Shown here: in pieces, positions 11,825-57,514 of the stretch
Numbering within the stretch: the stretch's first letter is position 1
How the letters are laid out: each line of letters begins with the position of its first letter
Virus record (IMG/VR): IMGVR_UViG_3300032770_000008
Strand: one strand, 5' to 3'
Length of the DNA: 57,516 bases
Origin: an uncultured virus (IMG/VR IMGVR_UViG_3300032770_000008)
Taxonomy: Duplodnaviria; Heunggongvirae; Uroviricota; Caudoviricetes
Translations under genes and position numbers: made by a program
The notes under the pieces: generated by a model
What the model saw: the letters and a program-made list of their open reading frames with translations, nothing else
Databases searched by the model: none
Told to the model about the DNA's origin: nothing

Positions 11825-11829
11825 CGTTA

Positions 11830-11878
11830 TTGACGATGTACATCCGCCGCGCGTACGGTTGCAATCGCGCGATCGCAA
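11830..11878 (+). promoter_or_regulatory. Divergent promoter region with a 20-bp near-palindrome
   Basis: TTGACG(11830)-N18-TACGGT(11854); TTGCAATCGCGCGATCGCAA at 11859-11878. Confidence 0.45.
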
Positions 11879-11906
11879 ACAATCGACGCGAGGAGATCTC
11901 CCCCGA

Positions 11907-14954: not shown

Positions 14955-14957
14955 GCG

Positions 14958-16531: not shown

Positions 16532-16535
16532 CGAT

Positions 16536-17162: not shown

Positions 17163-17214
17163 CTAGCGTCCTCCCAGCAGCCTACAGGCAGAGGCCGACA
17201 TCGCGGCTTGCTTC

Positions 17215-18537: not shown

Positions 18538-18582
18538 GGGGTATGCTGATTATCGTCCCCGGCCCCCGAACGCGCTAAGGAA

Positions 18583-29818: not shown

Positions 29819-29831
29819 GACGCGTCAGGTG

Positions 29832-30911: not shown

Positions 30912-31126
30912 GCTCCTCCCGGCACGTAGATCGGCGGCTGAGCAGCCACCGACTGCCGCGCCGCGAACGTACTGACGGTCGGCGTCGTCGTACCGATCTG
31001 TCCGAACGACGGCGTATCGGCGTAGGCGGAAACCGACGTGGACGGCAGCGCGATCGACGCGCCTTGATTGACTTGGGCGACCCCGAAGGCGGCCGTAACG
31101 AAGATCGATGGGAGCGTGATCAGCAT
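30908..31126 (-). CDS. Small hypothetical protein (72 aa)
   Basis: Fits the gap; stop overlaps the next start. Confidence 0.5.
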   Translation of the reverse strand: MLITLPSIFVTAAFGVAQVNQGASIALPSTSVSAYADTPSFGQIGTTTPTVSTFAARQSVAAQPPIYVPGGA

Positions 31127-31129
31127 CGG

Positions 31130-32224: not shown

Positions 32225-32679
32225 GGCGCGCCTGCCTTCGACATCACGATCCATTCTTCGGGTAACGCGCCATCCGGCGGCGCTACCTCAGAGCGGCTCA
32301 CGTATCCAGCGCGCTCTGCGGCTCGGCGCGACGGGATGTTTTCAACACGAATCGCCGCAAACACTTCCTCGTCGGCGAAGCGAGCAAGCCCCTTGTAGAT
32401 CTCGCTACCGATTCCCTGGCCTCGTCGCGACAAATCAACGGCGAGAGAGATCCAGAGGCGGCCGTCGCGGCGCTGGAGCATCCCGTACCCGACGATCGGA
32501 TCACCGACCACGTAACAAATGAAATCGCGCCCCGACCGTGCCAGCACGCTCTCGAGCCACGCGCGTTGCTCTTCTTCCGTGATGGCGTCGCCGTCACGAA
32601 ACCACGCGCGTCCATCATTTCGGATTCGGCGGATGGCCTCCGCGTCATCAAGCGTCGCGAGCTCGCGCCAGATCGTCAC
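32221..32679 (-). CDS. GNAT N-acetyltransferase (PseH-like sugar acetyltransferase)
   Basis: IRRIRN...ITEEEQRAW, RRGQGIG, ENIPSRRAAERAGY. Confidence 0.82.
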   Translation of the reverse strand: MTIWRELATLDDAEAIRRIRNDGRAWFRDGDAITEEEQRAWLESVLARSGRDFICYVVGDPIVGYGMLQRRDGRLWISLAVDLSRRGQGIGSEIYKGLARFADEEVFAAIRVENIPSRRAAERAGYVSRSEVAPPDGALPEEWIVMSKAGAP

Positions 32680-33593
32680 CGTGCCTGCTCGCGGTGAAGT
32701 CGCGGCCAGATCGATCCGTCGATGAGCTCTCGAAACGTCGAGAGATCCCATTTGGCGATAAAGCGGTTGTCGTTGTCATCGAGCTCGCTACGTACCGTTG
32801 GATGGAAGAAGGTGAGTCCCGAGATATGCCCGAGCAGCGCGCCCTGCGAGATGAGATTCTTCTTGCCGGCTCGAAGTGCGCGGATCCCCCAATCACAATC
32901 ACCGTAATTCGTCCCCACGAACGATTCGTCGCAGCCGCCGATCACGTCGAAGAAATTCGGCGCCGCGCAGTACATCATGAGCGCGTGACCGTCGTCTGTC
33001 GTGAAGCTCGTCCGTGGGCTGTGCACGAGATCGCCATCGAACGAGAATCCGTGTTTGTCACACCACGCGCGCATCGCCGCGTTCGACAATACCTTCGCCT
33101 CGACCTCGGGTCGGATCCGATCCCAGAACGCCGGATCTTTGAAGGCCGCCGGACAAGGATTGCCCCAGTGATAGGGGAGATAACGCGGCGACGCGATCAC
33201 GTTGCCGCGGCCGTACTTCATTTCCGCAGCACGCACGTCCGTGACCAAGTTCCTGAGCCATCCACGTGCTGGCTTGACATCGTTGTGGAGGCACACGAAC
33301 AGGTCGTCGCCGCGTTGCTTGGCGATCTCCGTCGCCTGATTCATGAGATACGTCTGACTGCCGGAATCGCGACGAACCGCATCGACACCCGCAGGGAGAC
33401 GTGCGCGAAGATCCGCGTCGAGCTCTTCATCGTCGGTCCAATACACGATCGTCAACGTCGCAGCATCGCCATCGAGCTTCATCACGCGCTGGAGAATGGA
33501 CGCGCATTCGACGACCATGTCGTTGTAGCCAGGCAAGCCACGTCGAACGTAGTGGGTGACATAGATCCCGACCACGCTCACCTCCGCATCCAC
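32676..33593 (-). CDS. GT-A glycosyltransferase (family 2-like)
   Basis: VCLHNDV...GWL, IGGCDESF...YGDCDW, GH...T, RFIAKW. Confidence 0.8.
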   Translation of the reverse strand: MDAEVSVVGIYVTHYVRRGLPGYNDMVVECASILQRVMKLDGDAATLTIVYWTDDEELDADLRARLPAGVDAVRRDSGSQTYLMNQATEIAKQRGDDLFVCLHNDVKPARGWLRNLVTDVRAAEMKYGRGNVIASPRYLPYHWGNPCPAAFKDPAFWDRIRPEVEAKVLSNAAMRAWCDKHGFSFDGDLVHSPRTSFTTDDGHALMMYCAAPNFFDVIGGCDESFVGTNYGDCDWGIRALRAGKKNLISQGALLGHISGLTFFHPTVRSELDDNDNRFIAKWDLSTFRELIDGSIWPRLHREQAR

Positions 33594-34663
33594 GCGAGCG
33601 TCGCGTCCACAATCTGCTCGAGATCAAGATCGTTGAGCCATGCCCCACAGGGCAACGCGAGCTGACGGGCCGCGAAACGATCGAGACCTGGAAGCGAGCG
33701 TCGGAAGCGCGCCACGCACGAGTGCTCGTCGCAGCGCCGATGAACCTGCGACGTTTCGATCGCGCGCTCTCGCATGAACGCCTGGAAACCGGCGCGATCC
33801 GCGACCAGAATGGGAAAAAACCAATACGACGATCGCTCCGTCGCGAGCGGGGGCAGCTCCACGCGGTCGTTTCCCGAGCGCGCGATTTCGTTCGCGATCG
33901 CCGTCCACATCCGACGCGCATTCTGACGATGTAACTCAACGCCGTCGATCGCGACGGGCAAATTTGCACGACCGATCGCGGCTGCCAGATCGTTCATGTG
34001 GAATTTGAAACCTGCTTCGGCGATGTCTTGTCCCGCGCGGAAATCTACCTTCGATCTGCGATCGAGCCCGAACCAGCGCAGAAGCCGCGCGCGATCGAGC
34101 TGATCGGCAGGGACGACGATCGCGCCACCATCGCCGCACGTGAGGTGCTTGATCGCCTGGAACGAGAAGCACACGTAATCAGCGTCCCCACTCGAACCAA
34201 ACGCGTGCGCCGCATCTTCGACGATCGGAATGTTCGGCGCCGCGGCGCGAAGCGCTGCGTAATCGCATCGCGTACCAGCCCAATCGATCGCAACAATCGC
34301 GCGCGTCTCTAGCAGCAACGCGCTCCGCTCGACGCTCGCTGGATCGATGAGTCCCGTGGTCGGATCGACATCGGCCCACTCGATCGCGGCCCCCAGGTGC
34401 ACCAACGGCGCGATAGTCGCGAAACAAGTCATCGGCGATACGATCACAGTGTCGAGCGCGTCGAGGCCGATGAGGTGATACGCAAGATGAAGAGCGCTTG
34501 TTCCCGAGTTCAAGGTCAGAAGGTTCGAATCGCCAAGGGCTTCCTGCAAATCGCGCTCGAACGCCTCGACGACGGGTCCCTGCGCGATCTGACCGGAGCG
34601 CAGCACGTCCGCGACGGCCGTCACCGCCTCATCCGCCATGCGTACTTTGAATAGCGAGATCAC
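33578..34663 (-). CDS. DegT/DnrJ/EryC1/StrS PLP-dependent sugar aminotransferase
   Basis: NSGTSALHLA, EDAAHAFG, FSFQAIKHLTCGDGG, FKFHMNDLAAAIG. Confidence 0.93.
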   Translation of the reverse strand: MISLFKVRMADEAVTAVADVLRSGQIAQGPVVEAFERDLQEALGDSNLLTLNSGTSALHLAYHLIGLDALDTVIVSPMTCFATIAPLVHLGAAIEWADVDPTTGLIDPASVERSALLLETRAIVAIDWAGTRCDYAALRAAAPNIPIVEDAAHAFGSSGDADYVCFSFQAIKHLTCGDGGAIVVPADQLDRARLLRWFGLDRRSKVDFRAGQDIAEAGFKFHMNDLAAAIGRANLPVAIDGVELHRQNARRMWTAIANEIARSGNDRVELPPLATERSSYWFFPILVADRAGFQAFMRERAIETSQVHRRCDEHSCVARFRRSLPGLDRFAARQLALPCGAWLNDLDLEQIVDATLAWMRR

Positions 34664-34758
34664 GAACGGTCGCTCCGGCCATCAAAGGGCGCTTCGAGCT
34701 TCTCGACGAGATACGATCCGAGAAAGCCGAACCCACCCGTGACGAGGATCCTCTTCAT
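34660..34758 (-). pseudogene. N-terminal remnant of an NAD-dependent epimerase/dehydratase
   Basis: 32-aa ORF MKRILVTGGFGFLGSYLVEKL..., abutting the upstream stop and overlapping the downstream start. Confidence 0.7.
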
Positions 34759-35397
34759 TCAGCGCGTCCGCTGCATCACGACGCCCGTGCCGAGGCGATA
34801 CCGGTCAACGAACCCGAGTTCGAGCGCCCTGTCGTGCGCGCGCTTCACCGTTCCCGTCGACCAATCGAGGTCGTCGAGCGCCAAGAATCCGCCGACATCG
34901 ACTTTCGCCGCGAAGCGATCGACGTCGCGGATCGCCTGCTCGTTGTGATTGCCATCGATCGAGAGCAGCTGAATCGACGCGGGAGGCTCGACGTCGTCGG
35001 ACGGCGCCCGCCGGATGTCGCAGATGCCATCCACCTCGTGTTTCTTGAGTCGGGCGCGGAACACCTGGTACACGCGCTCGTGATCGACCTTGCTCCACCA
35101 CTCGATGTTTTTCTTCGTGTTGACCTCGGAGTCCGCCGCCATGCCGGCCACGGAAGCGGCCGACGACCACGGATCGATCGCGATGAAGCGCCCGGCGACG
35201 CCGTGCTCGACGCGCGCGACATGCTTCATCGCGAGCAGCATCGGGATCGCCGAGCCGCCCTGCCAGATACCAATCTCGACGACCATCCGGGGGCGCATCG
35301 CGAGCACGATCGACGCGAGCGTCTGTGCACGCGAGAGCGAGCACCAATCGCCACCCTCGGGTAAGCAGCGCTCGATCTCGGCCATCACATCTTTCAT
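34759..35397 (-). CDS. Class I SAM methyltransferase (Methyltransf_24-like)
   Basis: VEIGIWQGGS, IAIDPW, LLSIDGNH, GGFLALDD. Confidence 0.85.
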   Translation of the reverse strand: MKDVMAEIERCLPEGGDWCSLSRAQTLASIVLAMRPRMVVEIGIWQGGSAIPMLLAMKHVARVEHGVAGRFIAIDPWSSAASVAGMAADSEVNTKKNIEWWSKVDHERVYQVFRARLKKHEVDGICDIRRAPSDDVEPPASIQLLSIDGNHNEQAIRDVDRFAAKVDVGGFLALDDLDWSTGTVKRAHDRALELGFVDRYRLGTGVVMQRTR

Positions 35398-36884
35398 CGC
35401 GGTTTCCCTCCTTCGTCGAAGATCGTGTCACCGTACGCGACGATCTTTCCATGAAGCGCCGTCCACGCCGTCGCGAGACTCTTGGCGTCGCCCAAGCGGC
35501 GAAAGCGCTCGACGTCACGGCACGCCGCGAGCAGCTCGTCCGCTTCGAATGAGATCGCTGGCAGAGACGGCGGAGCAACAAGTGCTTCGGGAACCGCCGC
35601 GCGCGGAGCCTGTCGCATGACGCTCGTCGCGCGTGGCGCGCCGATCCGCACGTTGCCCGCGTCGACGGCGACGCGCCCGGGTAAGGCTCCCTGCGGACCA
35701 CGCCACGTGCCCGGATGCTTGCCCACGTCGATCTGCTCCTTCTTCGCAGCGGCGGCCTCTTCGGGAGTCGGCAGCACCACATCGATCTGCGCGAGGACAT
35801 GCTCGAGATCGGTCGTGCCGATCCACGAGGTCTCGTCCTCGATCCCATACGAAACGACGATCCGTCCCGATGCAGGATCGATCGCGAGACCCGCGGCGAA
35901 TTCGATCCCAACGCGCGGGTTCAGCTTGAAGGATTCCGATCGCGCGACGGCGACACCCTGACCATCCACCAAGATCCACGCGTGCCAGTAAAATTTGGCC
36001 GTTTCCGTCCGGCAGCCGTGCGCGAGACCGAGCCAGAGACCGCCGCGATCGGCGAACGCGCTCGCGGCGAAGCCGAGCGGCAGGCGCGGCGCGATCGCGT
36101 CGATCCGCACGAGTTGCGTCCCGCCGCGCAACTTGTATTCGATGAAGCCCAGACCTTCCTGGCGCGGGCCGCGCGCGTAGAGCTTGACGTCCATCGCGCC
36201 CGATTGCGCAGTGACCGAGGACGGAAATGTCGTGCGTGAGAGCGCGACCGGCGCCTCCACGCCGACAAGCACGTCGGCGTGCTTATCGACGAGGCGGCCG
36301 GCACGTCCGTGAATCCCGCCCGCGCCGACCGAGAAGAGCAGGCGAAGGTCGTCTGCCTCGGCATACGGCATCCAATTCTTCTGGTGCGTCTGCGACCACG
36401 ATCCGCGCAGCGGATCCGCGCGAACGATCTGATAGTTCTCGTCGAATGCGAGCGCGATCATCTCGATCTGCCCTCGCCTGTTGAGCTGCATCGCGTTGCC
36501 GACCGCGCAGAGCCCGTCGGCAGCTGTGCAAACCAGGCGGATGTCTTCGAAGCCGATCACCGACGCGCGCTCGGGACGGATGCCCGTCTTGTCGGTGATC
36601 TCGATGACGCGCGTCGGAATGATCTCCTGCCGCGACAGGATCTGCGCCTCGTCGAGCTCGACCATCACGTTGCGGTTGATGATGTAGGCGGATCGATTCG
36701 AGACCTGTGGCCGCGATCCGGGCATGTGGTAGTTCGCACATCGAATCGCCGCGAGCCATCGCCCATCCGGCGTGCGAACGATGCTGGGATTGAAGGGCCA
36801 ATGCTTATTGGGCCACGGATCGATCGCGATCCGCGCGTGCTGCCACGCGCCAACGTCAGCGGCAGGCGCCCGCGCCGCGCTCAC
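35394..36884 (-). CDS. Beta-propeller protein of the type associated with glycosyltransferases
   Basis: FNPSI, GFEDIRL, QKNWMP, LRGGTQL, IEFAAGL...VVSYG. Confidence 0.72.
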   Translation of the reverse strand: MSAARAPAADVGAWQHARIAIDPWPNKHWPFNPSIVRTPDGRWLAAIRCANYHMPGSRPQVSNRSAYIINRNVMVELDEAQILSRQEIIPTRVIEITDKTGIRPERASVIGFEDIRLVCTAADGLCAVGNAMQLNRRGQIEMIALAFDENYQIVRADPLRGSWSQTHQKNWMPYAEADDLRLLFSVGAGGIHGRAGRLVDKHADVLVGVEAPVALSRTTFPSSVTAQSGAMDVKLYARGPRQEGLGFIEYKLRGGTQLVRIDAIAPRLPLGFAASAFADRGGLWLGLAHGCRTETAKFYWHAWILVDGQGVAVARSESFKLNPRVGIEFAAGLAIDPASGRIVVSYGIEDETSWIGTTDLEHVLAQIDVVLPTPEEAAAAKKEQIDVGKHPGTWRGPQGALPGRVAVDAGNVRIGAPRATSVMRQAPRAAVPEALVAPPSLPAISFEADELLAACRDVERFRRLGDAKSLATAWTALHGKIVAYGDTIFDEGGKPR

Positions 36885-44379: not shown

Positions 44380-45033
44380 TCACGACCTAGACCGCGTATT
44401 GTGGAGGACACTGTAGAGCGCCGCGATGCCGGTGACGCCGAGCGCGAAAAAGACACCGATCTTGAGCACACCCAGCCAGCTCGCCGCCTCCGATCCACGA
44501 CCTTCGGCGCCCTGCTGCCAAACGGTCTTGGGCAGCGCAGTCGGTTCGGGGCTCTTGAGCGCGATCCCATGCGCGCGCGCGAGCTCGCGAAGCTGCCGGA
44601 GTCGATCTTCCCAGTTCTCGTACGCGGACCATTCGGTGGCGGCCCTCACCCACCACGACGCAGCTTGCTTTTCGGCGAAGTCCTTCCATTCGGTAAGTAG
44701 GGGTGTCACGAATGCCGAGAGCCACTGCGCGACCGCTGGCGATGGATGCGCGATCGCCTGTCCCGCGAGATCGCTCGTGACCGCTTGGAAGTCGGTCGTG
44801 AGGATCGTGATCGCGCGCTCCTTATCCGCGGTCGAATGAAACCACTCGCCCCCGACCACGACGAGCGGGCGGCGGCGATCCACCGCCGCCGTGCCGAATC
44901 CCTGGAAGATCTGCCGCGCGCTCCGCCGGACGGCCATTCCCTTCAAGACCGTCGGCAAGAACGGACCCGCGGCCGCGCCGATCGCGTAGTCCCGCGCCGC
45001 GATCGCGAAGAGCTGTCCGTACGCGCCACGCAT
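44380..45033 (-). CDS. Membrane protein, MRGxY-leader family
   Basis: MRGAYGQ...YAIGAA; C-terminal TM. Confidence 0.75.
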   Translation of the reverse strand: MRGAYGQLFAIAARDYAIGAAAGPFLPTVLKGMAVRRSARQIFQGFGTAAVDRRRPLVVVGGEWFHSTADKERAITILTTDFQAVTSDLAGQAIAHPSPAVAQWLSAFVTPLLTEWKDFAEKQAASWWVRAATEWSAYENWEDRLRQLRELARAHGIALKSPEPTALPKTVWQQGAEGRGSEAASWLGVLKIGVFFALGVTGIAALYSVLHNTRSRS

Positions 45034-45037
45034 CGTG

Positions 45038-45487
45038 CTACGGGATATCCTTACCCGTGAGCTGCGCGAGTCGCGCGCGCGCGGCGTCGCGCGCGACCGC
45101 CGCCGTCTTGGCAGTCGCCGCATTCTCGGGTGTCGGCGCCGCCGCGAGCGCGGCCTGCGCGCGCGCGAACTGGATGTTGGCCGTCATATAGGCGGTCGCG
45201 ATATCGACGAGCGCCTGCTGCTTCGGCGTCTTGACGCTCCGCTTGGCCGCGTCGAGCTGCGCGTCGGCCTGGGCGCCCGCCGCGGCCGAGGCATTCGCGT
45301 GATCAGCGGCGGCCGGCGGATCCAGCGGAGCTACTTGTTGCGCCTGATCGTGATGCCACAGCGCGCGCCAGTGGAGCTGGAGCGTCTGCCAGACGGAGAG
45401 ACCAACCGGATCTTGCCCGTGGCCGCGCTCGTAGAGCGCGAGGGCGAGCGCAGCCACGACCGGGATCAGCACGAGCACGGGCAGCAT
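45038..45487 (-). CDS. N-terminally anchored Ala-rich protein
   Basis: MLPVLVLIPVVAALALALY followed by helical Ala-rich region. Confidence 0.7.
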   Translation of the reverse strand: MLPVLVLIPVVAALALALYERGHGQDPVGLSVWQTLQLHWRALWHHDQAQQVAPLDPPAAADHANASAAAGAQADAQLDAAKRSVKTPKQQALVDIATAYMTANIQFARAQAALAAAPTPENAATAKTAAVARDAARARLAQLTGKDIP

Positions 45488-45490
45488 CGA

Positions 45491-46201
45491 TCATTTCTCC
45501 TTGGTGACGGCGAAGTGATACGCGAGCACGCCGACGAGGGCGACGCCGCCGATCATGAGGGCGAGCGGTCCAAACAGTTCCTTTACGACGTTCGCGGCAC
45601 CCTGCCCGAACTTTTTTGCCGCGTCCTCCAGCGTATGGGGAAGCTGCTCCACGGCGTACTCGACGCTGTCGACGATCATCGACCACTTGCTCGGCAATTC
45701 CTCCGTCGCAGCGACCTGAATCGAGATCGCGTTCGCCGCGCGCCAAAATTCGTCGTTGAACGGATAGAGCGCCGTGGGTGGCGCCACCGTCGCGATCGCT
45801 TCCACGTGCTCGAGCGCGCGGTGCCCGCGCTCGAGCACGGCCTCGCGCCCTGTCGCTTCCACGTGCCGGCCCCCAACCAAATATTTTCCCGCGATCTGTC
45901 GCCAAAACATCGCGAGACGCACGACATCGGAGTTCACGGTTCGAGGAATCTTGAGCAAGTATCCCGAGGGCGCGCTCGACGGCAGCGTCCCGGGCGGAAG
46001 GTTCGCGTAGCCGACCGTCTTGATCCAATTCGGCGGCGCGGTCCAATCAAAACCACGCTTCTTGGCGAAATAATCGCGCTGCGCGGCCCACATGTCGTCG
46101 GCGCGCGTGCCAGGCAGTGTGTTGAACGAGATGCCATCGGCCGTCTCGACGACGAGCGGCGGCACGCCCGCGCCGACGAGCGGCCGGTAATAGCCCCTCA
46201 T
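45491..46201 (-). CDS. Membrane protein, MRGYY-leader family
   Basis: MRGYYRPLVGAG; C-terminal TM plus KEK. Confidence 0.78.
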   Translation of the reverse strand: MRGYYRPLVGAGVPPLVVETADGISFNTLPGTRADDMWAAQRDYFAKKRGFDWTAPPNWIKTVGYANLPPGTLPSSAPSGYLLKIPRTVNSDVVRLAMFWRQIAGKYLVGGRHVEATGREAVLERGHRALEHVEAIATVAPPTALYPFNDEFWRAANAISIQVAATEELPSKWSMIVDSVEYAVEQLPHTLEDAAKKFGQGAANVVKELFGPLALMIGGVALVGVLAYHFAVTKEK

Positions 46202-46566
46202 CGGAGCATCTTCTTCGCGCTAGCGAAGAGCGCCGTCGCGCGCGTCTCCGCCTTGCGCGCGCGAAGCGCCATCACGATGGCGAGCACGATCCCGCCTCCG
46301 GCTACAACGCCACCGGTCGAGAGCCAGCCGCCGGGCGATCCGCCTCCGCCGCCGCCGCGCCGCTGGGGCACGGCAGCCGGCGGATCGCCGCCGCCACCCG
46401 AGCTCGGCGTGATCGCGTCGTGACGCTTGGTGAGGTTCGGCCAGTTCGGGAACATCTTGTCGAGCGCCGCGCGATCGACCTCGTCGGACGTGAAGCCGAC
46501 GACGATCTTCGGAGCGGTCGCGCGAAGCGCGATCGGAATCGGTCGATGTCCGTAGTAGCCGCGCAT
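46198..46566 (-). CDS. Membrane protein, MRGYY-leader family
   Basis: MRGYYGHR...IVVGF; TM plus basic tail. Confidence 0.75.
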   Translation of the reverse strand: MRGYYGHRPIPIALRATAPKIVVGFTSDEVDRAALDKMFPNWPNLTKRHDAITPSSGGGGDPPAAVPQRRGGGGGGSPGGWLSTGGVVAGGGIVLAIVMALRARKAETRATALFASAKKMLR

Positions 46567-46570
46567 CGTG

Positions 46571-46774
46571 TTACCTCATCGCCTTCTCGTACCGCTGCAC
46601 GATCTTCGATCCGATCCAAACCGCCGCTCCGATCGACACGATCGGCAACATCACCTGACGGGCACGCGTCCAGAAGCCAGCGCTCGGCGGCGCGAACGCC
46701 GGATCGAGTGGTGGTGTACCGGGCGGCCGCTCGGCGCCGATGATCCCGAAGTAGTAGCGGTGTCCGTCGTGCAC
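46571..46774 (-). CDS. Small membrane protein
   Basis: RYYFGIIGAE, Pro-rich linker, TM, basic tail. Confidence 0.65.
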   Translation of the reverse strand: MHDGHRYYFGIIGAERPPGTPPLDPAFAPPSAGFWTRARQVMLPIVSIGAAVWIGSKIVQRYEKAMR

Positions 46775-46775
46775 G

Positions 46776-46958
46776 TCAGAATTTCTTCGCGATCTTTCGG
46801 GCGAACTTTCGAACGCCCGGCAGGAACGCGTACGCGAGCGCGCCGGCGCCGCCGATGAACAACGCGATATGCCACCACGGGCGGCTCGGCGGCGCGACTT
46901 GAAGGGTCACGGCCGCCGGCGCCGGCGCCGCGCCGACGATCTGCCGCCAGTCGCTCAT
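46776..46958 (-). CDS. Small membrane protein
   Basis: WRQIVGAA, Pro-rich linker, TM, basic tail. Confidence 0.68.
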   Translation of the reverse strand: MSDWRQIVGAAPAPAAVTLQVAPPSRPWWHIALFIGGAGALAYAFLPGVRKFARKIAKKF

Positions 46959-47173
46959 CGACGACCTCGGCGCTTCTTCGACGGCCAGAGGAAATAGACG
47001 GCACCGGCGACAGCACCGATCGAGATCACCGGATGCGCTCGAACGGTATCCGTCACGCGCGCCGTGATCCGATGGAAGAAGGACGGCTGCGGCACCGCCA
47101 TCACCGGCGGAGGAGCCGGCGGAGGGGCATCCGCGCCGAGAAGGGGAACCGCGTAACCGTACATGCCGCGCAT
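46955..47173 (-). CDS. Small membrane protein, MRGxY-leader family
   Basis: MRGMYGYAVPLLGAD, Pro-rich linker, TM, KKRRGRR; AAGGA RBS. Confidence 0.72.
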   Translation of the reverse strand: MRGMYGYAVPLLGADAPPPAPPPVMAVPQPSFFHRITARVTDTVRAHPVISIGAVAGAVYFLWPSKKRRGRR

Positions 47174-47235
47174 CGAGATCTTCCTTTCGTGTCGATAAAA
47201 CGGGCCGGCCGCAAGATGCGACCCTCCCCGAGAAC

Positions 47236-48933
47236 TTAGGTCTTCACCTTGCCGATCGCCTCGTTGAGCGGTCCAGGCCACGTCGCGTCGCTCTTGTCGA
47301 AGTACGCCGCGTACACGAAGCCGCTCGGATCTTTCGTCTCGCCGCCGAACCAGTCGTCGGCATCATCGCTCGTGGCGAAACCCTGCGAGAACCACTTCCC
47401 GCCCGTCGCGAGCATCACCGCGACGACCGGATCGTCCTTGCCGGCCGCGAGATCGTGTGCCTGCTTGCGAATCACCGCGAGCATCGGCGCCGACGCGCCG
47501 ACGGAGATCTGGTCACCGCCGGGCAACGCCTCCGGCGGCTTCTCGCCGGGAAGGGCCGGCGGCGAGGACGCCTTCGCCTGCTCGGTGAGATCGATCGCCT
47601 TCTTCGCGAGCTCGAGCTTCTGCCGGGCATCTTTGGCAGCGTCCGCCTGCGCGGCCGTCACCATCGCAGCTTCAGCGGCGCGGCGCGCGTGCCCGCGCCA
47701 CCACGCGTAGCCACCGAGGGACGCGGCAACGAAGAGGACCAGCGGCAGAGCACCGGACGTGATCGCCGCGGTCGCGTCATCCGCGAGGCCGAAGATGCTC
47801 GAGTCGTCGCCGGCACTCGCCGACGGATCGTCCATCTCGATCGCGGCCTTGTCCTGCGGCGTCCACTGCGAGGTCGACATGTCGGCGACCGGCTTGCCCT
47901 GGTTCTGCGCGATTCCCGTCACCTGCTTGAGCACGCCCTGCGTCCACTGCGCGGCCGGATCTCCTTGGGACGCGCTCTGATGCACGGCGTGGATCTGCGC
48001 CTGCGCCGATTTGTCGCCGGCTTGTGCGCGATGAAGTGTATTGAGGACGTGGTACGCGACCATCGTCTGCGCCGCCGTCTTGTGCGCGACGTCGACGGTG
48101 GCAGCCATCTTCGGATCGGTCGCGGCCTGTGCCTTGGCCTGCGCGACGGTCGCCTTGGCCTGATCTTTCTTCGGCCCGGCATTCGCGAGCGACGCTGTCA
48201 CGAGCTTGCCGGCGATCGCACCAGCCGCGGGACCACCGATCGCGGTCGCGCCGATCGAGGCCGCGGTCGCGACGATCGGCTCGATCGGCTTAAGCGCGTT
48301 ACCGATCGTGTTCACGACGCCGGTCACCGCGTTACCGATATCGTCGAAGAAGTTGCCGCACATGACGGACTGGTGGTGATCGAGCATCGCTCCCATGAGC
48401 ACGACGCCCGCCTCGTCGAGCGCCTCTTCCGCACAACCGACCGCGGCGTGCGCGGCCTCGGCGGCGTGCAGATCGCGGTGGAGCTCGCGGACCTTGGTCA
48501 TCGCGACCTGGATGAGCGGAGCGACGTCGATCGAGCCGCGATAACAGCGACCATCGACGCAGATCGACGCGTGCAGCCGGTGGTTCTTGTCGAGCTCGAG
48601 CGACACGGACATGCCGCCCGAACCGGCAGAAACGAGCGGCGCGATTTCGGCGAGCAATCCCGGAACGCGGTAGATCCCGCGATCGTTGTAGATGCCCCGA
48701 CCCGAGACCTGCGCCGACGGAGCGACACCGAGATCCTCGATCTCGAGATCGTACGGATACGGATAAGGCGGATAGTCCCACCAGGGACCATAACCACCGC
48801 CCCAGCCGCCCCAGCCGCCGAAGTAGCGACGACCGCCGCGACCGCCCCAGCCGTGACCGCCGCCGCCGCCGCCGTGGCGACCCACGACGGGCGGTGCCGA
48901 CTGCATCGAGCTCCAAGGATCCGCCGAGTTCAT
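47236..48933 (-). CDS. Large modular putative virion protein (565 aa), possibly processed
   Basis: Gly/Trp/Tyr-rich N-terminus, amphipathic FFDDIGNAV.. segment, TM, C-terminal FDK-W domain; modules separated by VVG/VSG/VG motifs. Confidence 0.78.
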   Translation of the reverse strand: MNSADPWSSMQSAPPVVGRHGGGGGGHGWGGRGGRRYFGGWGGWGGGYGPWWDYPPYPYPYDLEIEDLGVAPSAQVSGRGIYNDRGIYRVPGLLAEIAPLVSAGSGGMSVSLELDKNHRLHASICVDGRCYRGSIDVAPLIQVAMTKVRELHRDLHAAEAAHAAVGCAEEALDEAGVVLMGAMLDHHQSVMCGNFFDDIGNAVTGVVNTIGNALKPIEPIVATAASIGATAIGGPAAGAIAGKLVTASLANAGPKKDQAKATVAQAKAQAATDPKMAATVDVAHKTAAQTMVAYHVLNTLHRAQAGDKSAQAQIHAVHQSASQGDPAAQWTQGVLKQVTGIAQNQGKPVADMSTSQWTPQDKAAIEMDDPSASAGDDSSIFGLADDATAAITSGALPLVLFVAASLGGYAWWRGHARRAAEAAMVTAAQADAAKDARQKLELAKKAIDLTEQAKASSPPALPGEKPPEALPGGDQISVGASAPMLAVIRKQAHDLAAGKDDPVVAVMLATGGKWFSQGFATSDDADDWFGGETKDPSGFVYAAYFDKSDATWPGPLNEAIGKVKT

Positions 48934-48974
48934 GATTTCTCCGATTCTACAGGTCGCGCTCTGATCGCGCTCAT

Positions 48975-50405
48975 CTAGCGCCGCTCATACGATCCGGTAC
49001 GCGACAGGCCGCGCAGTCCCGCGCCGCCGCCGCGCCCCGAGGCCGCCGGGCCATAATGAATCTCGGCCCACGGACCAGACACCTGCGCGGACACGTTCGC
49101 CGCGCCCGACGCCGCGAAGTCCGACTGGCTCACGCCCGGACCGGGGCCGGCGCTCGGATCCCACGCGCCGCCGTAACCGTAGCCCGGGATGTCGTCTGGA
49201 ATCGCCGGCGGGTAATACGGCGGGTAGTAGTAGGGCGCGGGCACGGACGGAGGCGGAGGCGGAGGCACATAGCGATCGCGCCACGCCTCGCGACGACGAA
49301 ACAGGGGACGACGCTCGTAGTAACCACGCATGGGGTGATCTCCTCGCAGAAGGGTCCAGGTGCCGGAAACGTGGTGGCTGCGACGCAGGCGCTCTTCGAG
49401 TCGGCCGCGCGCGAGCTCGACGCGGCGAAGGATCTCGGGCACGCGCTCGACGGTTCGCCGACCTTCCCACGCGTAGGCATACTCTTGCTCGTCATCGGTA
49501 AGATCACGCGCGTGGAGCACCGGCACGTGGGCGTCGTAGAGCCCGCGGTTGATCGCGTCGAACAAGTTCACCGAAATCACCGATCCTTGCGGCGGATCGT
49601 TCCGATCGCTGAGCGTGAGGGCCTCCAGCGCCGCGCCGCCTTGAATCGATCGCAAGAACACGCCGGCCCCACGGAGCGCCTCGACGAGATCGTAGAGCGC
49701 GACATCCGCGCCGACGCGCGCGCCGATCGTGGATCGATGCTCGGCAATCGGCGATCGATCGCTCCACGCCGCATCGCCCTTGTCGAAGATCGCGACGTAG
49801 ATATACGACGCGGGCGCCGACGTCCAACGTGCGAACCAATCGAGCAATTCCGATCGTGATCGTGCCGGCACGGTCGACCACGTGGGTTCCGGATCGAGAC
49901 TCGTGAGCACGACACCAAGCAAGCGCGCGACAGACGCGTCGGCGAGATCGGCTGCGCGCCCCGGCGCGAGATCGACGTACGCAGCGTCCGCACCGAGAAT
50001 CCGAACAGGGTGCGTCCAATCCAAGCCCCACGACCGACCATAATCGCCACCGCCCCCACGATCGATGAGCAGCGGCGTCGACGATGCCAGGCGCGCCTTC
50101 TCGGGACCCGTGAGAATCCGACGCAGGCCAACCCACGTTGACGGTGCATCACCGATCGCGATCTCGTCACTCGGCGCGCCCTGCGCCCAGGACGCGCTCG
50201 TCTTGTCGAACGTCGCGAGGTACGAGTTACGAAGATCGCCCTGCGCGTCGCGAAGCCATGCCGCGAGCAAGCGTGCCGATCGGAATGGGCGCGAGCTCCA
50301 TCGCGCGGGGGCGCCTCGATCCGGATCGGGCGCGAGCAGCGCGACACCGATGAAATCGCCATAGGTCGCGGCCGCGCGGCCGTATGCCTCATCGCGCAAG
50401 CTCAT
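48975..50405 (-). CDS. Modular protein with two FDK-W domains and an internal MRGYY module
   Basis: YLATFDKTSASW and YVAIFDKGDAAW; in-frame ATG at 49331 with GAGGAG RBS. Confidence 0.72.
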   Translation of the reverse strand: MSLRDEAYGRAAATYGDFIGVALLAPDPDRGAPARWSSRPFRSARLLAAWLRDAQGDLRNSYLATFDKTSASWAQGAPSDEIAIGDAPSTWVGLRRILTGPEKARLASSTPLLIDRGGGGDYGRSWGLDWTHPVRILGADAAYVDLAPGRAADLADASVARLLGVVLTSLDPEPTWSTVPARSRSELLDWFARWTSAPASYIYVAIFDKGDAAWSDRSPIAEHRSTIGARVGADVALYDLVEALRGAGVFLRSIQGGAALEALTLSDRNDPPQGSVISVNLFDAINRGLYDAHVPVLHARDLTDDEQEYAYAWEGRRTVERVPEILRRVELARGRLEERLRRSHHVSGTWTLLRGDHPMRGYYERRPLFRRREAWRDRYVPPPPPPSVPAPYYYPPYYPPAIPDDIPGYGYGGAWDPSAGPGPGVSQSDFAASGAANVSAQVSGPWAEIHYGPAASGRGGGAGLRGLSRTGSYERR

Positions 50406-50614
50406 TCGAGACCCTCCAGCGAGGCAGCGAGATCGCAGATCCGCTTGCGCGCTTCGGCCGGCGACAAACCGATCGAAAGCAGCGCGCGGAAGCCACGCCC
50501 GACATGCGAGAGTGCGAGCTCGACCGGCGTCATGCGAGCGCCGACCAACGGCACCGCACCGCGGTCATAGCTGCCGTCGCGCGCGAGGCCACGCTGTCCG
50601 GCCCCGCGGCTCAC
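50402..50614 (-). CDS. Hypothetical protein (70 aa)
   Basis: GTGA/ATGA coupling at both ends. Confidence 0.5.
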   Translation of the reverse strand: MSRGAGQRGLARDGSYDRGAVPLVGARMTPVELALSHVGRGFRALLSIGLSPAEARKRICDLAASLEGLE

Positions 50615-51015
50615 CGACCGCCCACCTTCTCGGCGATGAGACCGAGTGCGCCCCACAGCGCCGCGTGCCCCCAATCGGTCGCGCCCTCCGTCACGCGCGC
50701 GAGCTCGTCACGCTGCCCGTAATTCCAGCTCTGCGTGTGAAGCAGCTCGCGATCGATCTGCGCACCGAGGAACTCGGTGAGCGTGCCGATCGCGGCATAC
50801 GTCGCGCCGCGACCGATCGCCGACCAGCTCTCGAGCTTGGGGATCGCGTACGAGAGCGCGAGGCCTCCGATCGCGTAAATCGGCAGGAACGGCACGTGCG
50901 CTCCCTTGAATGCCGACGAGTAGCGCGGTCCGAAGAGGACGTTCTCGGCGGCCCAGCCGGCGACGCCGAACGCGGCACCTTTGCCGATGGTGGATTTGAG
51001 ATCGGTCTTGCTCAT
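50611..51015 (-). CDS. Integral membrane protein, CmpB/DUF975-like
   Basis: GWAAE, PFLPIYAIGG, TEFLG...SWNY pattern; GGAG RBS. Confidence 0.65.
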   Translation of the reverse strand: MSKTDLKSTIGKGAAFGVAGWAAENVLFGPRYSSAFKGAHVPFLPIYAIGGLALSYAIPKLESWSAIGRGATYAAIGTLTEFLGAQIDRELLHTQSWNYGQRDELARVTEGATDWGHAALWGALGLIAEKVGGR

Positions 51016-51368
51016 CCGGTTGTCTCCTTGGTCGCTGCTGACGGCGGCGGGGACGCGACGAGCCCCTCCGGCATTCGAGTGAAGAGCCCCGCGTCCGAGT
51101 ACAGCTGCGAGAGCCGCGGCGCGCCGTCCTTCCACCACTGGCGCGCGCCACACTTCGGGCACGTATGCGCCTCTTCGTCGCCGACGTTCCACGCCCCGAG
51201 GTGCTTCCACTTCGCGCCGCACAGATCACACGTATGCCCGTGGAAGTCCCACGCGAGCGCCGCGAGAACGCCAAGCGCGATCGCAGCCGCGCCATAACCG
51301 ACAACCTTCCCGAAGAAAGATCCTTGGCGAGGCGGTGTCGGCGGAAGTGGTGAGAGGCTACGCACCAT
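51012..51368 (-). CDS. Membrane-anchored zinc-finger protein
   Basis: TM followed by HTCDLCG...H...HTCPKCG. Confidence 0.65.
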   Translation of the reverse strand: MVRSLSPLPPTPPRQGSFFGKVVGYGAAAIALGVLAALAWDFHGHTCDLCGAKWKHLGAWNVGDEEAHTCPKCGARQWWKDGAPRLSQLYSDAGLFTRMPEGLVASPPPSAATKETTG

Positions 51369-51444
51369 CAGGCGATCTCCCCGTAGCAAACGCGCGCACC
51401 CGGGCGCTGCGCGACGACGTGCACGGCGCGTGTTGCGCGAGCGC

Positions 51445-51738
51445 TCACCGGCGCCTCCACGCGCTACGCTCGCTGTCCTCGACGAGCTCGTTCCACGACG
51501 CCTTCCCATCCGTCGCGTGTCGCTTGATGATCGGATTCTTGAAACCGGCGCGACGAAGTGCTGCGGCCGCGCGGCGCGCTCCCTCGAGCGTCTTGGTCTC
51601 CTTCTCGAAATCGGCCGGCGTCGCGTACACCAGGAACTTGCCCCAGCGCACCTTGTCGTACTTGCGTACGAGGAAGCCACCCGTCGCGGCGAGATAGCGC
51701 CGAATGTCCGACTGGAGCTGCTTGCGCGATGTCCCCAT
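51445..51738 (-). CDS. Basic hypothetical protein (97 aa)
   Basis: Start abuts the upstream stop. Confidence 0.6.
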   Translation of the reverse strand: MGTSRKQLQSDIRRYLAATGGFLVRKYDKVRWGKFLVYATPADFEKETKTLEGARRAAAALRRAGFKNPIIKRHATDGKASWNELVEDSERSAWRRR

Positions 51739-52833
51739 CTAGAACACCCCGTTGGTCCGCGCGAACGCCGCCGTCGTGTGCGGATAGCGCTTCCGATCTT
51801 CTCGGTTCTCGAGCCACCGCGCCGCGCCCTCGAGCCCGGCGACCTGCGCGAGCCCGAGCAGTCCCGAGAGCGTGATCGTCCGCGGTCCCTCCTCACCGGG
51901 GAGCTGGATCGGCCGACCGACGTGCTCGGACGCGATTCCAGACTCCGCGAGGTGCGCGCACGCATCCGCGAGATCGCGATCGAGCGCCGCGCGCTGCGCA
52001 TCAGGCGATGCCGCGACGGCAGCCGGATCAAAACCGAGCTCGGCGAGACGCTCGCGGCGATGCCGATACTGTCCGACGTGACGACTCGATTCGAACGTCG
52101 GCGCCTCGCGCGCGAGCCGACCGCACAAGTCATCCCAGCGCGCCAGATCGACGCCCTCGATCGGCGCGCGACGCTGCGTCGCCAGATCCGGAATCTCTCG
52201 ACCGACCAGTGGCATCACCCGCTGCGTCGCGAGATGTGAGTTCGAGGGCAACGGCTCGGGCGCTGGACCCCGAGTACCGTCGCGCTCCTGCTCGAGCAGC
52301 GCCACGAATTTCTCCGGCGCCTCGTCGATCATCTGTCGCATCTCCGCATCGGAGAACGTCGACGGTTCCATGACGTCCTCTGCGGATGCCGCGGGAACAG
52401 GTGCGATCGCGCGCGGCCGATTTCGCAGAAAGTGCTCGCGCAGTCGCCACGCCTGCACCTCGGCCTGCCGCTGGTGCACGACCGGCTCGACGAAGACGCG
52501 CACGATGTCATTCGCTACGTCCAAGCGGCCACGCGCCTCGGCCTCGGCGATCGCGCACATGATCACGAACGGCGGGATCTCGCGGCCCGCGCTCGCGAGA
52601 TCCGCGAGCACGACGAGTGGCGACGGCGGAGGCGGGGGACCATACGCGTACGGTGGCGGGGCGTAGTAGTCCGCGTAATACGCGCCGTCGCACGACGGAA
52701 GGTGCGAACGTCGCACCGGCCAGACGCGGTGATGCTGCACGTGCCGCGGCGCCGCATAGCCGACGCGCGCGGGTGCGCGATCGCGGCCCGCGAGAACGAG
52801 CAACGCGACGACGGCGAGCGGGATGAGCCACAT
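51739..52833 (-). CDS. N-terminally anchored protein (364 aa), possible degenerate lysozyme-like C-terminal domain
   Basis: MWLIPLAVVALLVLAG; C-terminal E...VGQY...LAELG...TLSGLLG..QVAG..GA..W. The fold call is weak. Confidence 0.6.
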   Translation of the reverse strand: MWLIPLAVVALLVLAGRDRAPARVGYAAPRHVQHHRVWPVRRSHLPSCDGAYYADYYAPPPYAYGPPPPPSPLVVLADLASAGREIPPFVIMCAIAEAEARGRLDVANDIVRVFVEPVVHQRQAEVQAWRLREHFLRNRPRAIAPVPAASAEDVMEPSTFSDAEMRQMIDEAPEKFVALLEQERDGTRGPAPEPLPSNSHLATQRVMPLVGREIPDLATQRRAPIEGVDLARWDDLCGRLAREAPTFESSRHVGQYRHRRERLAELGFDPAAVAASPDAQRAALDRDLADACAHLAESGIASEHVGRPIQLPGEEGPRTITLSGLLGLAQVAGLEGAARWLENREDRKRYPHTTAAFARTNGVF

Positions 52834-52874: not shown

Positions 52875-54260
52875 CTAAACTCGGTTGGAGAAGTTGGCGC
52901 CCATGCCCAGAAGTTTCGACGGATCCTCGATCCAGCCGTCCTCGGTCCACTGCGAGAACTTGGTCGGTCGCGCCGTGCGCACCGCGCAGTGAACCATCAG
53001 GACACCCTCCGCCGGCACCATGTGTGCCGGCAAGATGCCGAGCTTGATCACGACGTCGCGCGGGATCATCTGGTACTTGACGACCGGCTCCGCGGGCGCG
53101 CCAGCCGCGATGAGCTCGGACGTGCGCCAGGCGACGAGGTTATCGCAGTTGTGCACGAGCACGTCAGACTCAGGAAGCCAGAAGCGGCCGGAGTCCGTCG
53201 TGATATCGCCGCAGAGCTCGACGCCCGCGGCCGCGATCGATCGAACACGCGCGAATTTCTTGTCACGGCGCTCGGCGTAGCCCTCGCGCGTCTTCACGCG
53301 CGGAATCACGCGGTAGATCGGATTCTCACCGAGCCCTCCGTGATCATCCACGCGACGGATCGACACGCTGATCCCGAGCATCCGGTGCAGGATCCGCAGC
53401 TGTAGTGCGAGCTGCCGCGACGTCGTCGAGTAAACGAGCGACGACTCCGAGTTTCCCGTCTCGGCACGACCCGCGTCGGCGGCAAGTCCTTCGATCACGA
53501 CGCGCACGCTCTCGTCCGACGCGAAGCGCAGCGACGCGAGGTGTTTCTCGGGAGCGGTGTGGCCACACTTCGCGAAGAAATCCGCGATCAGACGATCGTT
53601 GATCGCGATGTCTTGGGCCACGCGCGGCACCGAGCTTCCCTGCACGAGGTCGTCGCCGATTCGCACCTCGCTTGCACGGATCTCCTCGACGCGGCCGTCG
53701 ACGTCGCGGAACACACGATGCTCCGACGAGCAGCGCAGCGTGCAGCCGTTCGAGAGCCCGAGCGCAAGGATCTCCTTCTCGCCCGTGACGACGGCTTCCT
53801 GCACCGTCGTCCACGCTCCGTCACCGAGGATCCGATCGCCGGGACGAAGATGTGCGAACGCGACCGTCTGGTAGTCGTCGCGCAGAACGAGCGTCGACAA
53901 CGGCAGACAGTCCCCGCAGCCTCGCTCGAGCACGGTGTAGACATCGCGCCAATCTTCGTGACCCGGCTCGTCCTCCTTGTAGTAGACGCCCGAGAGGTAG
54001 AGCGGCGGGATGGGCGCGCCGAGGCCCTTCTCCGCGCGGCGGAGCGCGCGACGGATGTGCCACAGGTTCACGGCGATCATCGCCTCGAGCGCGAGCACGA
54101 TCGGCGCGACGTGACGATCACCGGCGGAAAAATTCTCGTCGCCATCGTCTTCGGGAAGCGTGATGTGAAGCAGCGGCGTCAGCTTCGATCGCGGAGAACG
54201 CGCGCTCCACGATCGATCACCCGGCAACGGCGCTCCCAGGCGAACCTGTTGGACCATCAT
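52875..54260 (-). CDS. Transglutaminase-like Cys protease/transferase, intein-interrupted
   Basis: Exteins join as EDWRD...RGCGD|CDNLVAWRTSEL...MVHCAV...IEDPSKLLGM (Cys-His-Asp order); spliced product about 207 aa. Confidence 0.8.
   Translation of the reverse strand: MMVQQVRLGAPLPGDRSWSARSPRSKLTPLLHITLPEDDGDENFSAGDRHVAPIVLALEAMIAVNLWHIRRALRRAEKGLGAPIPPLYLSGVYYKEDEPGHEDWRDVYTVLERGCGDCLPLSTLVLRDDYQTVAFAHLRPGDRILGDGAWTTVQEAVVTGEKEILALGLSNGCTLRCSSEHRVFRDVDGRVEEIRASEVRIGDDLVQGSSVPRVAQDIAINDRLIADFFAKCGHTAPEKHLASLRFASDESVRVVIEGLAADAGRAETGNSESSLVYSTTSRQLALQLRILHRMLGISVSIRRVDDHGGLGENPIYRVIPRVKTREGYAERRDKKFARVRSIAAAGVELCGDITTDSGRFWLPESDVLVHNCDNLVAWRTSELIAAGAPAEPVVKYQMIPRDVVIKLGILPAHMVPAEGVLMVHCAVRTARPTKFSQWTEDGWIEDPSKLLGMGANFSNRV
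53148..53909 (-). mobile_element. Intein (254 aa) with partial LAGLIDADG homing endonuclease
   Basis: Starts CLPLST; block B CSSEHRVF; block F CGDITT; ends VLVHN before the +1 Cys. Retains EGLAADAG and YSTTSRQLA.QL..L..MLGI. Confidence 0.92.
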
Positions 54261-56654: not shown

Positions 56655-57290
56655 TTACTTCGTCGACGTCTCCTCGGCGCGGCGGCTCGATCCGCCAACC
56701 ACCGACGCGTAGAAGGCCACGCCGTCCGGATCCGCGCCGATGTACTCCACGATCATTTCGATCTTCTCCCTCGCCTCCGACCAGCTAACGAACCCATCGA
56801 TCGCGTTGGTCGCGAACATGTCGCCGGGAACGCCACCCGGCTGACTGAATTGCGTCCTACCGTCGACGAGCACGTCGTGAATCAACCAGTCCGACGCGCC
56901 GTACGTCGTGCCGGCCGCGGAGACAAAGACGCGCTCGGGCAGCATCGCCTGGAACGCGCGGGGTGTGAAGCCGCGTTTCTCCGCATCCGCGCGCGCATCG
57001 TCGCTCGAGATCGAAATCTTCTCGCCCCGGTGGCAGCGCAAACCGTGCGAGTTCATCGGCACTACGTCGCGAAAGCCGTAGCGCACCCCGGCGAGCTCGT
57101 CGACGTAGAGATCGAGCAGCGTCCCGAACGCCTCCGGCGGCAGCTCGAGTTGAAGACGCAGCTTCTCGACCTCACCGACTCGGATCTTCTTGAGGAAGGC
57201 TCCGACGCGCGCGATGGCACCGGTGTAATCCGCGTCGGTGATCTCGCGGTGTGCGAGGCGCGCGATCAGATAATCGTCGATCTTCGTCAT
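56655..57290 (-). CDS. Protein with C-terminal capsid-like beta-barrel domain (paralog of the upstream gene)
   Basis: PERVFV...SDWLIHDVLVDGRTQF...VPGDMF...IEMIVEYIG....AFYASVVG; start chosen from GGAAGG RBS downstream of the terminator. Confidence 0.65.
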   Translation of the reverse strand: MTKIDDYLIARLAHREITDADYTGAIARVGAFLKKIRVGEVEKLRLQLELPPEAFGTLLDLYVDELAGVRYGFRDVVPMNSHGLRCHRGEKISISSDDARADAEKRGFTPRAFQAMLPERVFVSAAGTTYGASDWLIHDVLVDGRTQFSQPGGVPGDMFATNAIDGFVSWSEAREKIEMIVEYIGADPDGVAFYASVVGGSSRRAEETSTK

Positions 57291-57403: not shown

Positions 57404-57514
57404 CTAGATCGCCGCCGTTCCCACGATCGAACCGTAGAACGGCAGACCGTGCTCCGCCGGACCCACGTAGGTCACGACCATGACCACGTCCATCGCCGTC
57501 TGGGCCGTCTCGAA
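57404..57514 (-). CDS. C-terminus of a putative major capsid-like protein (partial)
   Basis: FETAQTAMDVVMVVTYVGPAEHGLPFYGSIVGTAAI* aligns with the C-terminus of 56655-57290 and is followed by a terminator. Confidence 0.55.
   Translation of the reverse strand, partial: FETAQTAMDVVMVVTYVGPAEHGLPFYGSIVGTAAI

Follow-up and report, generated by a model that had tools for sequence, protein, structure and literature searches.

The window analyzed here, a 57,516-nt stretch, is part of a 119,516-base contig of an uncultured virus (IMG/VR record IMGVR_UViG_3300032770_000008; GC content 62-70%), in which a run of minus-strand genes extends from 37 kb to the window end. Within this run, the genes at positions 44380-52833 lie next to those for a predicted transglutaminase-fold cysteine enzyme and for single jelly-roll capsid-like proteins (Table 1). 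This region is probably a module for particle morphogenesis in a tailless virus whose capsid is of the single jelly-roll type and whose particle probably contains a membrane. Pfam and PHROGs assign almost no names to the 30 window proteins scanned. Relatives were collected with an alignment of 24 intein-less homologs of the enzyme, which yielded 78 metagenome loci and 7 genome loci; 86 loci were analyzed, of which 85 were chosen via the enzyme and one (L086) via the capsid alone. Genes were called with a codon-based script, and certain starts are possibly wrong. The gene order is kept in these loci: one or more capsid-like genes, the enzyme, an N-anchored protein, a large membrane protein and C-anchored helical proteins.

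At the sequence level, comparison of these loci shows two short signals that recur on proteins of unrelated families (membrane, basic and capsid proteins). One is an RGxY(G) tag at a protein terminus; the other, a (small)-x-Val/Ile-Gly site, marks where a seemingly dispensable leader gives way to conserved sequence. A sequence-only reading of 44380-52833 had described a single shared leader instead, an aromatic/basic stretch ending in hydrophobic-hydrophobic-Gly. All the peptides on which it drew are present on the minus strand where it placed them, the one at 46774 with a GTG start, and in its six N-terminal examples the first phi-phi-G (phi, hydrophobic residue), at residues 9-24, is indeed followed by a hydrophobic segment and then by net-basic residues, in agreement with the proposed transmembrane (TM) segment and basic tail. 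RGxY itself, in contrast, is found in four of the six; the protein starting at 46774 has HRYY and that at 46958 has WRQIVG. The claim that the proteins are otherwise dissimilar also needs qualification, given the weak similarity between the proteins at 46955 and 46571 (32% over 56 aa, E 0.003) and the presence of an approximately 75-aa repeated domain in both of those at 47236 and 48975.

Table 1. Features of the morphogenesis region and adjacent genes (window positions; a slash marks the bond after the Gly of a hydrophobic-Gly site)
Positions	Strand	Feature	Signals and remarks
44380-45033	-	C-anchored helical membrane protein	RGAY 45019-45030; family-conserved border VVVG/GEWFH 44848-44862
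45491-46201	-	236-aa C-anchored orphan	RGYY 46187-46198; PLVG/AG
46198-46566	-	122-aa membrane protein	RGYY 46552-46563; IVVG/F; TM, basic tail
46571-46774	-	67-aa membrane protein, GTG start	HRYY..GIIG/AE; weakly similar to 46955-47173
46776-46958	-	60-aa membrane protein without RGxY	WRQIVG/AAP, the W-x-x-I-V-G form typical of capsid N-extensions
46955-47173	-	72-aa membrane protein	RGMY 47159-47170; PLLG/AD; TM, basic tail
47236-48933	-	Large membrane protein	PVVG/RHGGG 48877-48891; QVSG/RGIYNDRGIY 48670-48711, with the tag right behind the Gly site; ISVG/A 47494-47508 ahead of the repeated domain
48975-49331	-	Probable nested in-frame start	MRGYYERR; own AGGAG Shine-Dalgarno site
48975-50405	-	Protein with copies of the ~75-aa repeated domain	RILG/AD 49986-50003; TIG/ARVG/AD 49704-49730; C-terminal TGSYERR
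50402-50614	-	Small gene; GTG start overlaps upstream stop	MSRGAG...PLVG/AR
51739-52833	-	N-anchored membrane protein next to the enzyme, conserved there	ARVG/Y 52756-52770 in the post-anchor linker
52875-54260	-	Transglutaminase-fold Cys enzyme, intein-split	Cys 53145-53147, His 52989-52991, Asp 52923-52925; 26-aa N-extension with VRLG/A
53148-53909	-	Intein directly before the predicted catalytic Cys	C...HN/C sequence
56655-57290	-	Single jelly-roll capsid-like paralog, helical N-part	Fold from homolog L002
57404-57514	-	Main single jelly-roll capsid-like protein, C-terminal 36 aa, cut by the window end	30/36 identical to the L002 protein

The enrichment of RG.Y at protein starts is pronounced. 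It occurs in 4 of the 14 genes of 44380-52833, compared with a mean of 0.04-0.09 and a maximum of 3 in 2000 shuffles, so that the excess over shuffled controls expected by the sequence-only reading was found; in close relatives, 22 of 290 de-duplicated genes start in this way (0.75-0.94 expected, maximum 6). Conversely, there are no cases among the 47 minus-strand genes of window positions 1-37000, the 35 opposite-strand genes of the relatives or the 154 genes of a distant clade. When patterns within the first 40 residues are counted without bias, RG.Y comes top of all 25,262, occurring in 21 of 154 families where 2.7 are expected, with IGA and IVG among the next-ranked ones. Homologs of the 44380-45033 protein show the same trend, with the tag in 39 of the 124 Met-started sequences versus 1.0 in shuffles. 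Seven proteins, from about 4-5 independent families, carry RGxY at the C-terminus, and the tag is found in both orientations relative to the TM segment. The glycine codons under RGxY are GGC (12), GGA (7), GGG (7) and GGT (6); because synonymous codons vary, the signal is at the protein level, and an origin at the DNA level was rejected. The internal MRGYYERR at 49331 is probably a real nested start, with a Shine-Dalgarno score equaled by only 6 of 217 internal ATGs; it lacks a phi-phi-G close behind it. A variant RG-x-R-F/W (e.g., MSARGARF) stands in place of RGxY in loci L019, L033, L011 and L048 and in many homologs of the 44380-45033 protein, which suggests the existence of tag dialects.

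The second signal is the hydrophobic-Gly site, mostly Val-Gly. Outside predicted TM segments, [VIL][VILM]G[AS] is present seven times in 44380-52833 (1.6 expected; 0 of 300 shuffles), whereas plain phi-phi-G yields merely 13 against 7.4 (10 of 300 shuffles). An alignment of 26 members of the 44380-45033 family places a Gly at the domain start in 21 of them. A motif-blind profile starting after this Gly was compared with 1.84 billion proteins and gave 427 matches. From the best 150, 15 were dropped (2 training sequences, 11 late-starting matches and 2 with leaders shorter than 8 aa), leaving 135 homologs, all of them kin and at least two already in the 26-member alignment. In 109 of these 135, phi-Gly lies within -4 to +1 of the domain start, compared with 12% and 8% in random windows, and in 95 it is exactly at -1. 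The leaders ahead of it range from 9 to 612 aa and are unalignable; conservation begins abruptly at Val-Gly. The residue before Gly at the 109 sites is Val in 85, Ile in 16, Leu in 6 and Met in 2, and the resulting logo, (A/T/V/P)-x-V-G, precedes a variable residue (A in 40, G in 15, I in 13, N in 12 and L in 11); an Ala-Gly or Ser-Gly variant appears in only a minority of the remaining rows. The predominance of Val before Gly and the free next residue therefore give a protease-like logo. This differs from the site as originally read in two respects: a fixed Ala after Gly does not hold, and in the 44380-45033 protein the conserved border is VVVG/G at aa 61 and not YAIG/AA at aa 19. The orphan encoded at 45491-46201 was considered as a further member of this family and rejected; a homolog search with it returned only the self match.

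Elsewhere, the site is found ahead of the approximately 75-aa repeated domain (phi-phi-G in 14 of 32 cases, 4.1 expected) and in the linker of the 51739-52833 family, which has 34 members in 34 loci (15 of 23 against 5.4, with the pattern picked post hoc). When the starts of conserved blocks are compared, the test is positive in one family only (12 of 21 versus 4.9), and some VIG/LLG copies form the first strand of a conserved domain. An amphipathic helix exposed by cutting, similar to that of adenovirus pVI, was also considered and is unsupported, the hydrophobic moment just after the site being about 0.2.

The two signals tend to occur together. A non-TM phi-Gly follows within 25 aa in 19 of the 26 proteins with N-terminal RGxY but in 100 of the 278 others (Fisher p 5e-4). 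The signals are therefore linked yet separable, because RGxY at the C-terminus occurs without a Gly site and Gly sites in the distant clade occur without RGxY. The best interpretation, which we hold at about even odds, is that RGxY serves to load proteins onto the shell during assembly and that the enzyme cuts after Val-Gly. Under this scenario, RGxY and the Gly-site repeats would act as docking signals by which membrane proteins and basic core proteins attach to the shell, and the transglutaminase-fold Cys-His-Asp enzyme would cut after Gly once the proteins are docked. Cutting would remove leaders and capsid N-extensions and split the large precursors into modules. Such an address-plus-cut design would be like that of the T4 capsid targeting sequence (CTS) and of vaccinia A17/I7, with an unrelated protease fold.

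The enzyme, judging from its predicted structure (pLDDT 84), is a member of the transglutaminase-like superfamily with a Cys-His-Asp triad on its core fold. The fold matches include 3kd4 (Z 6.8), PeiP and PeiW (both Z 6.0) and LapG (Z 4.7), those with Z 4-6.8 being mostly transglutaminase-like, and neighbors in the ESM Atlas carry transglutaminase-like names; there is no Pfam match, including none to the LapG or PeiP/PeiW families. The three residues (C93, H145 and D157, in the order Cys-His-Asp) are invariant in the 24 intein-less homologs, and the three catalytic motifs are present in 65 of the 72 called members, with six of the remainder being short fragments. The intein, whose Pfam matches (Intein_splicing and LAGLIDADG_3) are weak and below the cut-off, occupies the identical site in at least nine of the 72, including the window copy. 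Three copies of the enzyme (in the window, L003 and L026) have a hydrophobic-Gly site in their own N-extension. An Ulp1/clan CE-type enzyme, such as I7, was considered and rejected: in that fold His precedes Cys, and the top fold matches here are transglutaminase-like. The fold matches listed include no entry for adenain, Ulp1 or I7, which does not by itself exclude that family. The transglutaminase fold therefore makes the enzyme an analog and not a homolog of the Ulp1-type proteases of adenoviruses and poxviruses. The parallel with Gly-specific maturation in these viruses that the sequence-only reading had drawn thus survives in that a conserved Cys-His-Asp enzyme leads the module, and fails with respect to the fold. 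The Gly cleavage motif of African swine fever virus and the protease clan names serve as general points of comparison.

A complex prediction for the L002 enzyme with its cognate leader returned a score of 0.00, which amounts to no verdict and is evidence neither way. In a tree of 35 enzymes, built from the N-terminal 95 aa and with 7 of 29 branches well supported, tag presence requires four changes, and the tree shows no single tagged clade. The enzymes of L027, L028, L029, L032, L034 and L035, of about 320 aa, contain a duplicated domain, of which the first copy lacks the catalytic Cys where visible. Small genes ending in RG[EHT]YR-stop are located directly upstream of the enzyme in L002 (1529-1672), L003 (2314-2691) and L008 (3843-4001), where they abut or overlap its called start.

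The same fold leaves room for ligation, in which an acyl-Cys formed at the Gly site (transpeptidation) or the Gln of RGQYG/WQQIVG (transglutamination) would link tagged proteins by covalent bonds, either to the capsid or to one another. Transglutaminases, TgpA and N-acyltransferases all belong to this fold family, Gln is the most common third residue of N-terminal RGxY in homologs (16 of 48), and Gln also flanks the capsid repeats. Neither motif, however, has an invariant Gln or Lys, and the tags of the window itself hold Ala, Tyr or Met where Gln would be expected, so that ligation appears quite unlikely. It also seems improbable that, in a large undescribed group of single jelly-roll bacterial viruses with no recognizable packaging ATPase, the enzyme would be a sortase-like transpeptidase that reads RGxY as an address and, upon cutting after Val-Gly, joins the membrane and core proteins covalently to the capsid. 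Cutting after Val-Gly by a different protease, either a host enzyme or a subtilase encoded in the same genome (21198-22436, minus strand; Peptidase_S8 above the cut-off, seemingly without a long prodomain), is scarcely credible: the subtilase gene is about 22 kb away from the module, whereas the operon itself includes the transglutaminase-fold gene, whose product has a conserved Cys.

The capsid-like family, to which the proteins at 56655-57290 and 57404-57514 belong, includes 68 proteins in 50 loci. The capsid domain of L002, 83% identical to the C-terminal piece in the window, is modeled as a beta-sandwich (pLDDT 88). Its best match among solved structures (VIA) is SPV1 (Z 8.0, root-mean-square deviation 3.6, 118 aligned residues, structural identity 8%), followed within 1 Z by capsid proteins of plant satellite viruses and of the haloviruses HHIV-2 and HCIV-1; among the 50 BFVD matches listed, SPV1 VP4 has the highest TM-score (0.68). 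The model thus supports a single jelly roll, at middling match scores. The N-extensions of these proteins are rich in the second signal: phi-phi-G occurs 55 times in 26 close-clade sequences (9.9 expected) and 17 times in 11 distant-clade sequences (2.6 expected), often as tandem W-x-x-I-V-G, with up to about seven WVD[IL]VG repeats, and the reversed motif is depleted. In L086, which lies within a 194-kb virus record and encodes the enzyme 3.4 kb downstream of the capsid, the capsid leader contains IIG, FVG and LMG. The expectation that the capsid N-terminus would carry the motif was therefore borne out in the relatives; the N-terminus of the main capsid protein of the window virus itself lies beyond the window end.

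These capsid repeats are also central to an alternative in which the signals only dock: Val-Gly and RGxY would bind the jelly-roll capsomers on their inner side, comparable to the SPV1 sub-capsomer 'cement', and would never be cut, with the enzyme acting elsewhere, e.g., on the cell wall or on host proteins. Tandem amplification of WVD[IL]VG and WQxIVG, the occurrence of RGxY at either terminus and the resemblance of the last capsid strand (Y.SIVG.A) to W/Y-x-x-I-V-G are all compatible with docking, as is the location of the SPV1 sub-capsomer proteins between the shell and the membrane (PMC8459092); moreover, among the named folds matched by the enzyme, those of the cell-wall endoisopeptidases PeiP and PeiW rank highest. 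What docking leaves unexplained is the abrupt onset of conservation at Val-Gly after an unalignable stretch of 9-612 aa, the position of the enzyme gene within the capsid operon and the presence of a Gly site in the N-extension of some enzyme copies, including that of the window. We consider docking without cleavage possible but rather unlikely.

Several points weigh against loading followed by cutting. Cleavage is predicted from sequence, and the virus is known here only from its genes. The co-occurrence of enzyme and tag is largely built in because 85 of the 86 loci were selected via the enzyme. N-terminal RGxY is present in only 10 of the 38 long loci, and no Gly site follows the seven C-terminal copies. 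The homologs in the border test are related, so that a single conserved structural Val-Gly would give an equal count; a generic test of conserved-block starts across all families gave 29 of 116 against 26.4 expected; and over whole proteins of the distant clade phi-phi-G is not enriched (99 versus 97.8). Thus, the earlier notion that Gly motifs mark module borders applies to three families and is not a general rule. Tandem WVD[IL]VG repeats suit avidity docking and redundant cutting equally well. The enzyme fold matches are weak (Foldseek E at least 0.016 and none below 0.001; VIA Z at most 6.8), and the fold family, which also holds cross-linkers and acyltransferases, is silent on whether the enzyme cuts or ligates.

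The null results of the generic test and of the distant clade, together with the paralogy of one small-gene pair, would suit the simplest alternative, namely, that there is no shared function but only copied gene starts, a genome of 67% GC whose composition favors Gly and Val, and a single conserved structural Val-Gly in each family. This appears very unlikely given that the motifs are strongly enriched while composition-preserving shuffles and reversed motifs are null, that synonymous sites vary under RGxY and that the tag recurs across families (21 of 154), on proteins with either orientation of tag and TM segment.

Among known systems, the proposed loading and cutting would work most like the T4 CTS; the system is a member of neither the CTS, nor A17/I7, nor the adenovirus protease (AVP) class because the enzyme fold, the motif and the capsid all differ. 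According to the pertinent passages of PMC9026906 and PMC7411985, T4-type systems employ a short N-terminal signal on unrelated proteins and a protease with its own propeptide; the former source also describes separate targeting and processing residues in the T4 CTS and redundant sites in phiKZ propeptides. The likeness to T4 CTS/gp21, phiKZ and SPN3US thus consists in a short N-terminal signal, unrelated proteins and separable parts, the last seen here at the sequence level. The T4 system, however, serves tailed HK97-type heads, with a serine prohead protease cutting after Glu and soluble cargo, in contrast to the single jelly-roll capsid, membrane cargo, Gly site and transglutaminase-fold Cys enzyme found here. 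In vaccinia virus, the N-terminus of A17 binds the D13 jelly-roll scaffold and is cut at AG/X, a motif at which core proteins are cut as well (as described in part of PMC4213562). The putative use of a membrane-protein N-terminus as a dock and the putative cut after Gly are shared with the present system, which is distinguished by Val/Ile-Gly with a free next residue, a separate RGxY tag and a prokaryotic host. In adenovirus, a single Cys protease, AVP, processes minor capsid proteins as well as basic core proteins at short motifs that contain Gly (passages of PMC3386624); its consensus, (M/I/L)XGX/G or (M/I/L)XGG/X, differs from the logo described above, as does the vaccinia motif, and so do its fold and the double jelly-roll capsid.

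Closer in fold are LapG (BTLCP) and PeiP/PeiW, transglutaminase-fold proteases with C-H-D residues that are both among the fold matches. At a conserved site, LapG cleaves off an N-terminal leader (part of PMC3032545), a precedent from which it follows that a transglutaminase fold is able to remove such leaders. LapG is nevertheless periplasmic, cuts Ala/Ala in adhesins and is regulated by LapD, whereas PeiP/PeiW cut pseudomurein. With respect to the capsid, the single jelly roll is shared with SPV1 (Portogloboviridae), which has an inner membrane, sub-capsomer proteins, a nucleoprotein core and mini-CRISPR arrays (PMC8459092). SPV1 differs in its approximately 20-kb circular genome, its Sulfolobales host and a profile that names no protease, compared with 119.5 kb, 67% GC and a bacterial-type genome here. 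Eukaryotic jelly-roll viruses use Ulp1-family proteases (passages of PMC11161782), and the passages on PRD1 in PMC3185693 mention no protease. If the proposal is correct, address-plus-cut maturation would have arisen three times: with serine proteases in tailed phages, with Ulp1-type proteases in eukaryotic jelly-roll viruses and, in the present case, with a transglutaminase fold in single jelly-roll viruses of prokaryotes. The proposal predicts exact cut sites and a loading tag of 4-5 residues, and bears on how membrane and core proteins are sorted into tailless particles without an evident packaging motor. The present analysis contributes the separation of an address from a putative cut site, a border test blind to the motif and a capsid context of the single jelly-roll type.

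No isolated phage represents this group: the enzyme and the capsid-like protein have 0 matches among 50,697 phage records. A scan of 30 plus 16 more window proteins gave no terminase or HK97 match, and neither terminase (PF03237) nor A32 (PF04665), the packaging ATPase of Helvetiavirae/varidnaviruses, was matched in G001, a metagenome-assembled genome (MAG), or in G002, the 194-kb related virus record. No published description of the virus group or of the tag was found, in a literature that leaves out most subscription journals. A 2026 preprint on myxobacterial viruses describes, in its text, six new groups, all tailed, and that text contains none of the terms 'jelly', 'transglut' or 'protease' (supplements not covered); by term search, PMC5894146 mentions neither protease nor myxobacteria. 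The contigs of the relatives are assigned to Kofleriaceae, Polyangiaceae and Myxococcota MAGs, with one Casimicrobiaceae and one archaeal MAG contig. The host is most likely a member of Myxococcota, an assignment for which the MAG labels of the relatives are the sole basis. Two related distant-clade proviruses, L082 and L083, reside within one 548-kb Myxococcota MAG contig, and the left flank of L082 contains genes that by eye resemble a nucleotidyltransferase/JAB-type defense locus.

The remainder of the window encodes several additional systems. Seven paralogous Ser/Thr/Gly-rich, fiber- or spike-like genes with common 'ISAGT...VVFSNSN' repeats (12195-19443, minus strand) have no relatives in the fetched loci. 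A sugar-modification cluster (8542-12113 and 29030-36884, minus strand), possibly involved in virion glycosylation, includes an NAD epimerase, a DegT aminotransferase, glycosyltransferases and methyltransferases. By resemblance and by Pfam AAA/ATPase matches, the genes at 3087-3983 and 27530-29029 (minus strand) encode a RadA/Sms-like ATPase with a zinc ribbon and a proteasome-type AAA ATPase. Finally, the C-terminal part of a TnpB/Cas12f-like gene (2-595, plus strand; Pfam Cas12f1-like_TNB above the cut-off) is directly followed by a CRISPR-like array (659-1710) that consists of 12 identical 36-nt repeats with 70-75-nt spacing and ends with about four degenerate repeat copies; together, these form a virus-borne compact type V-like locus.

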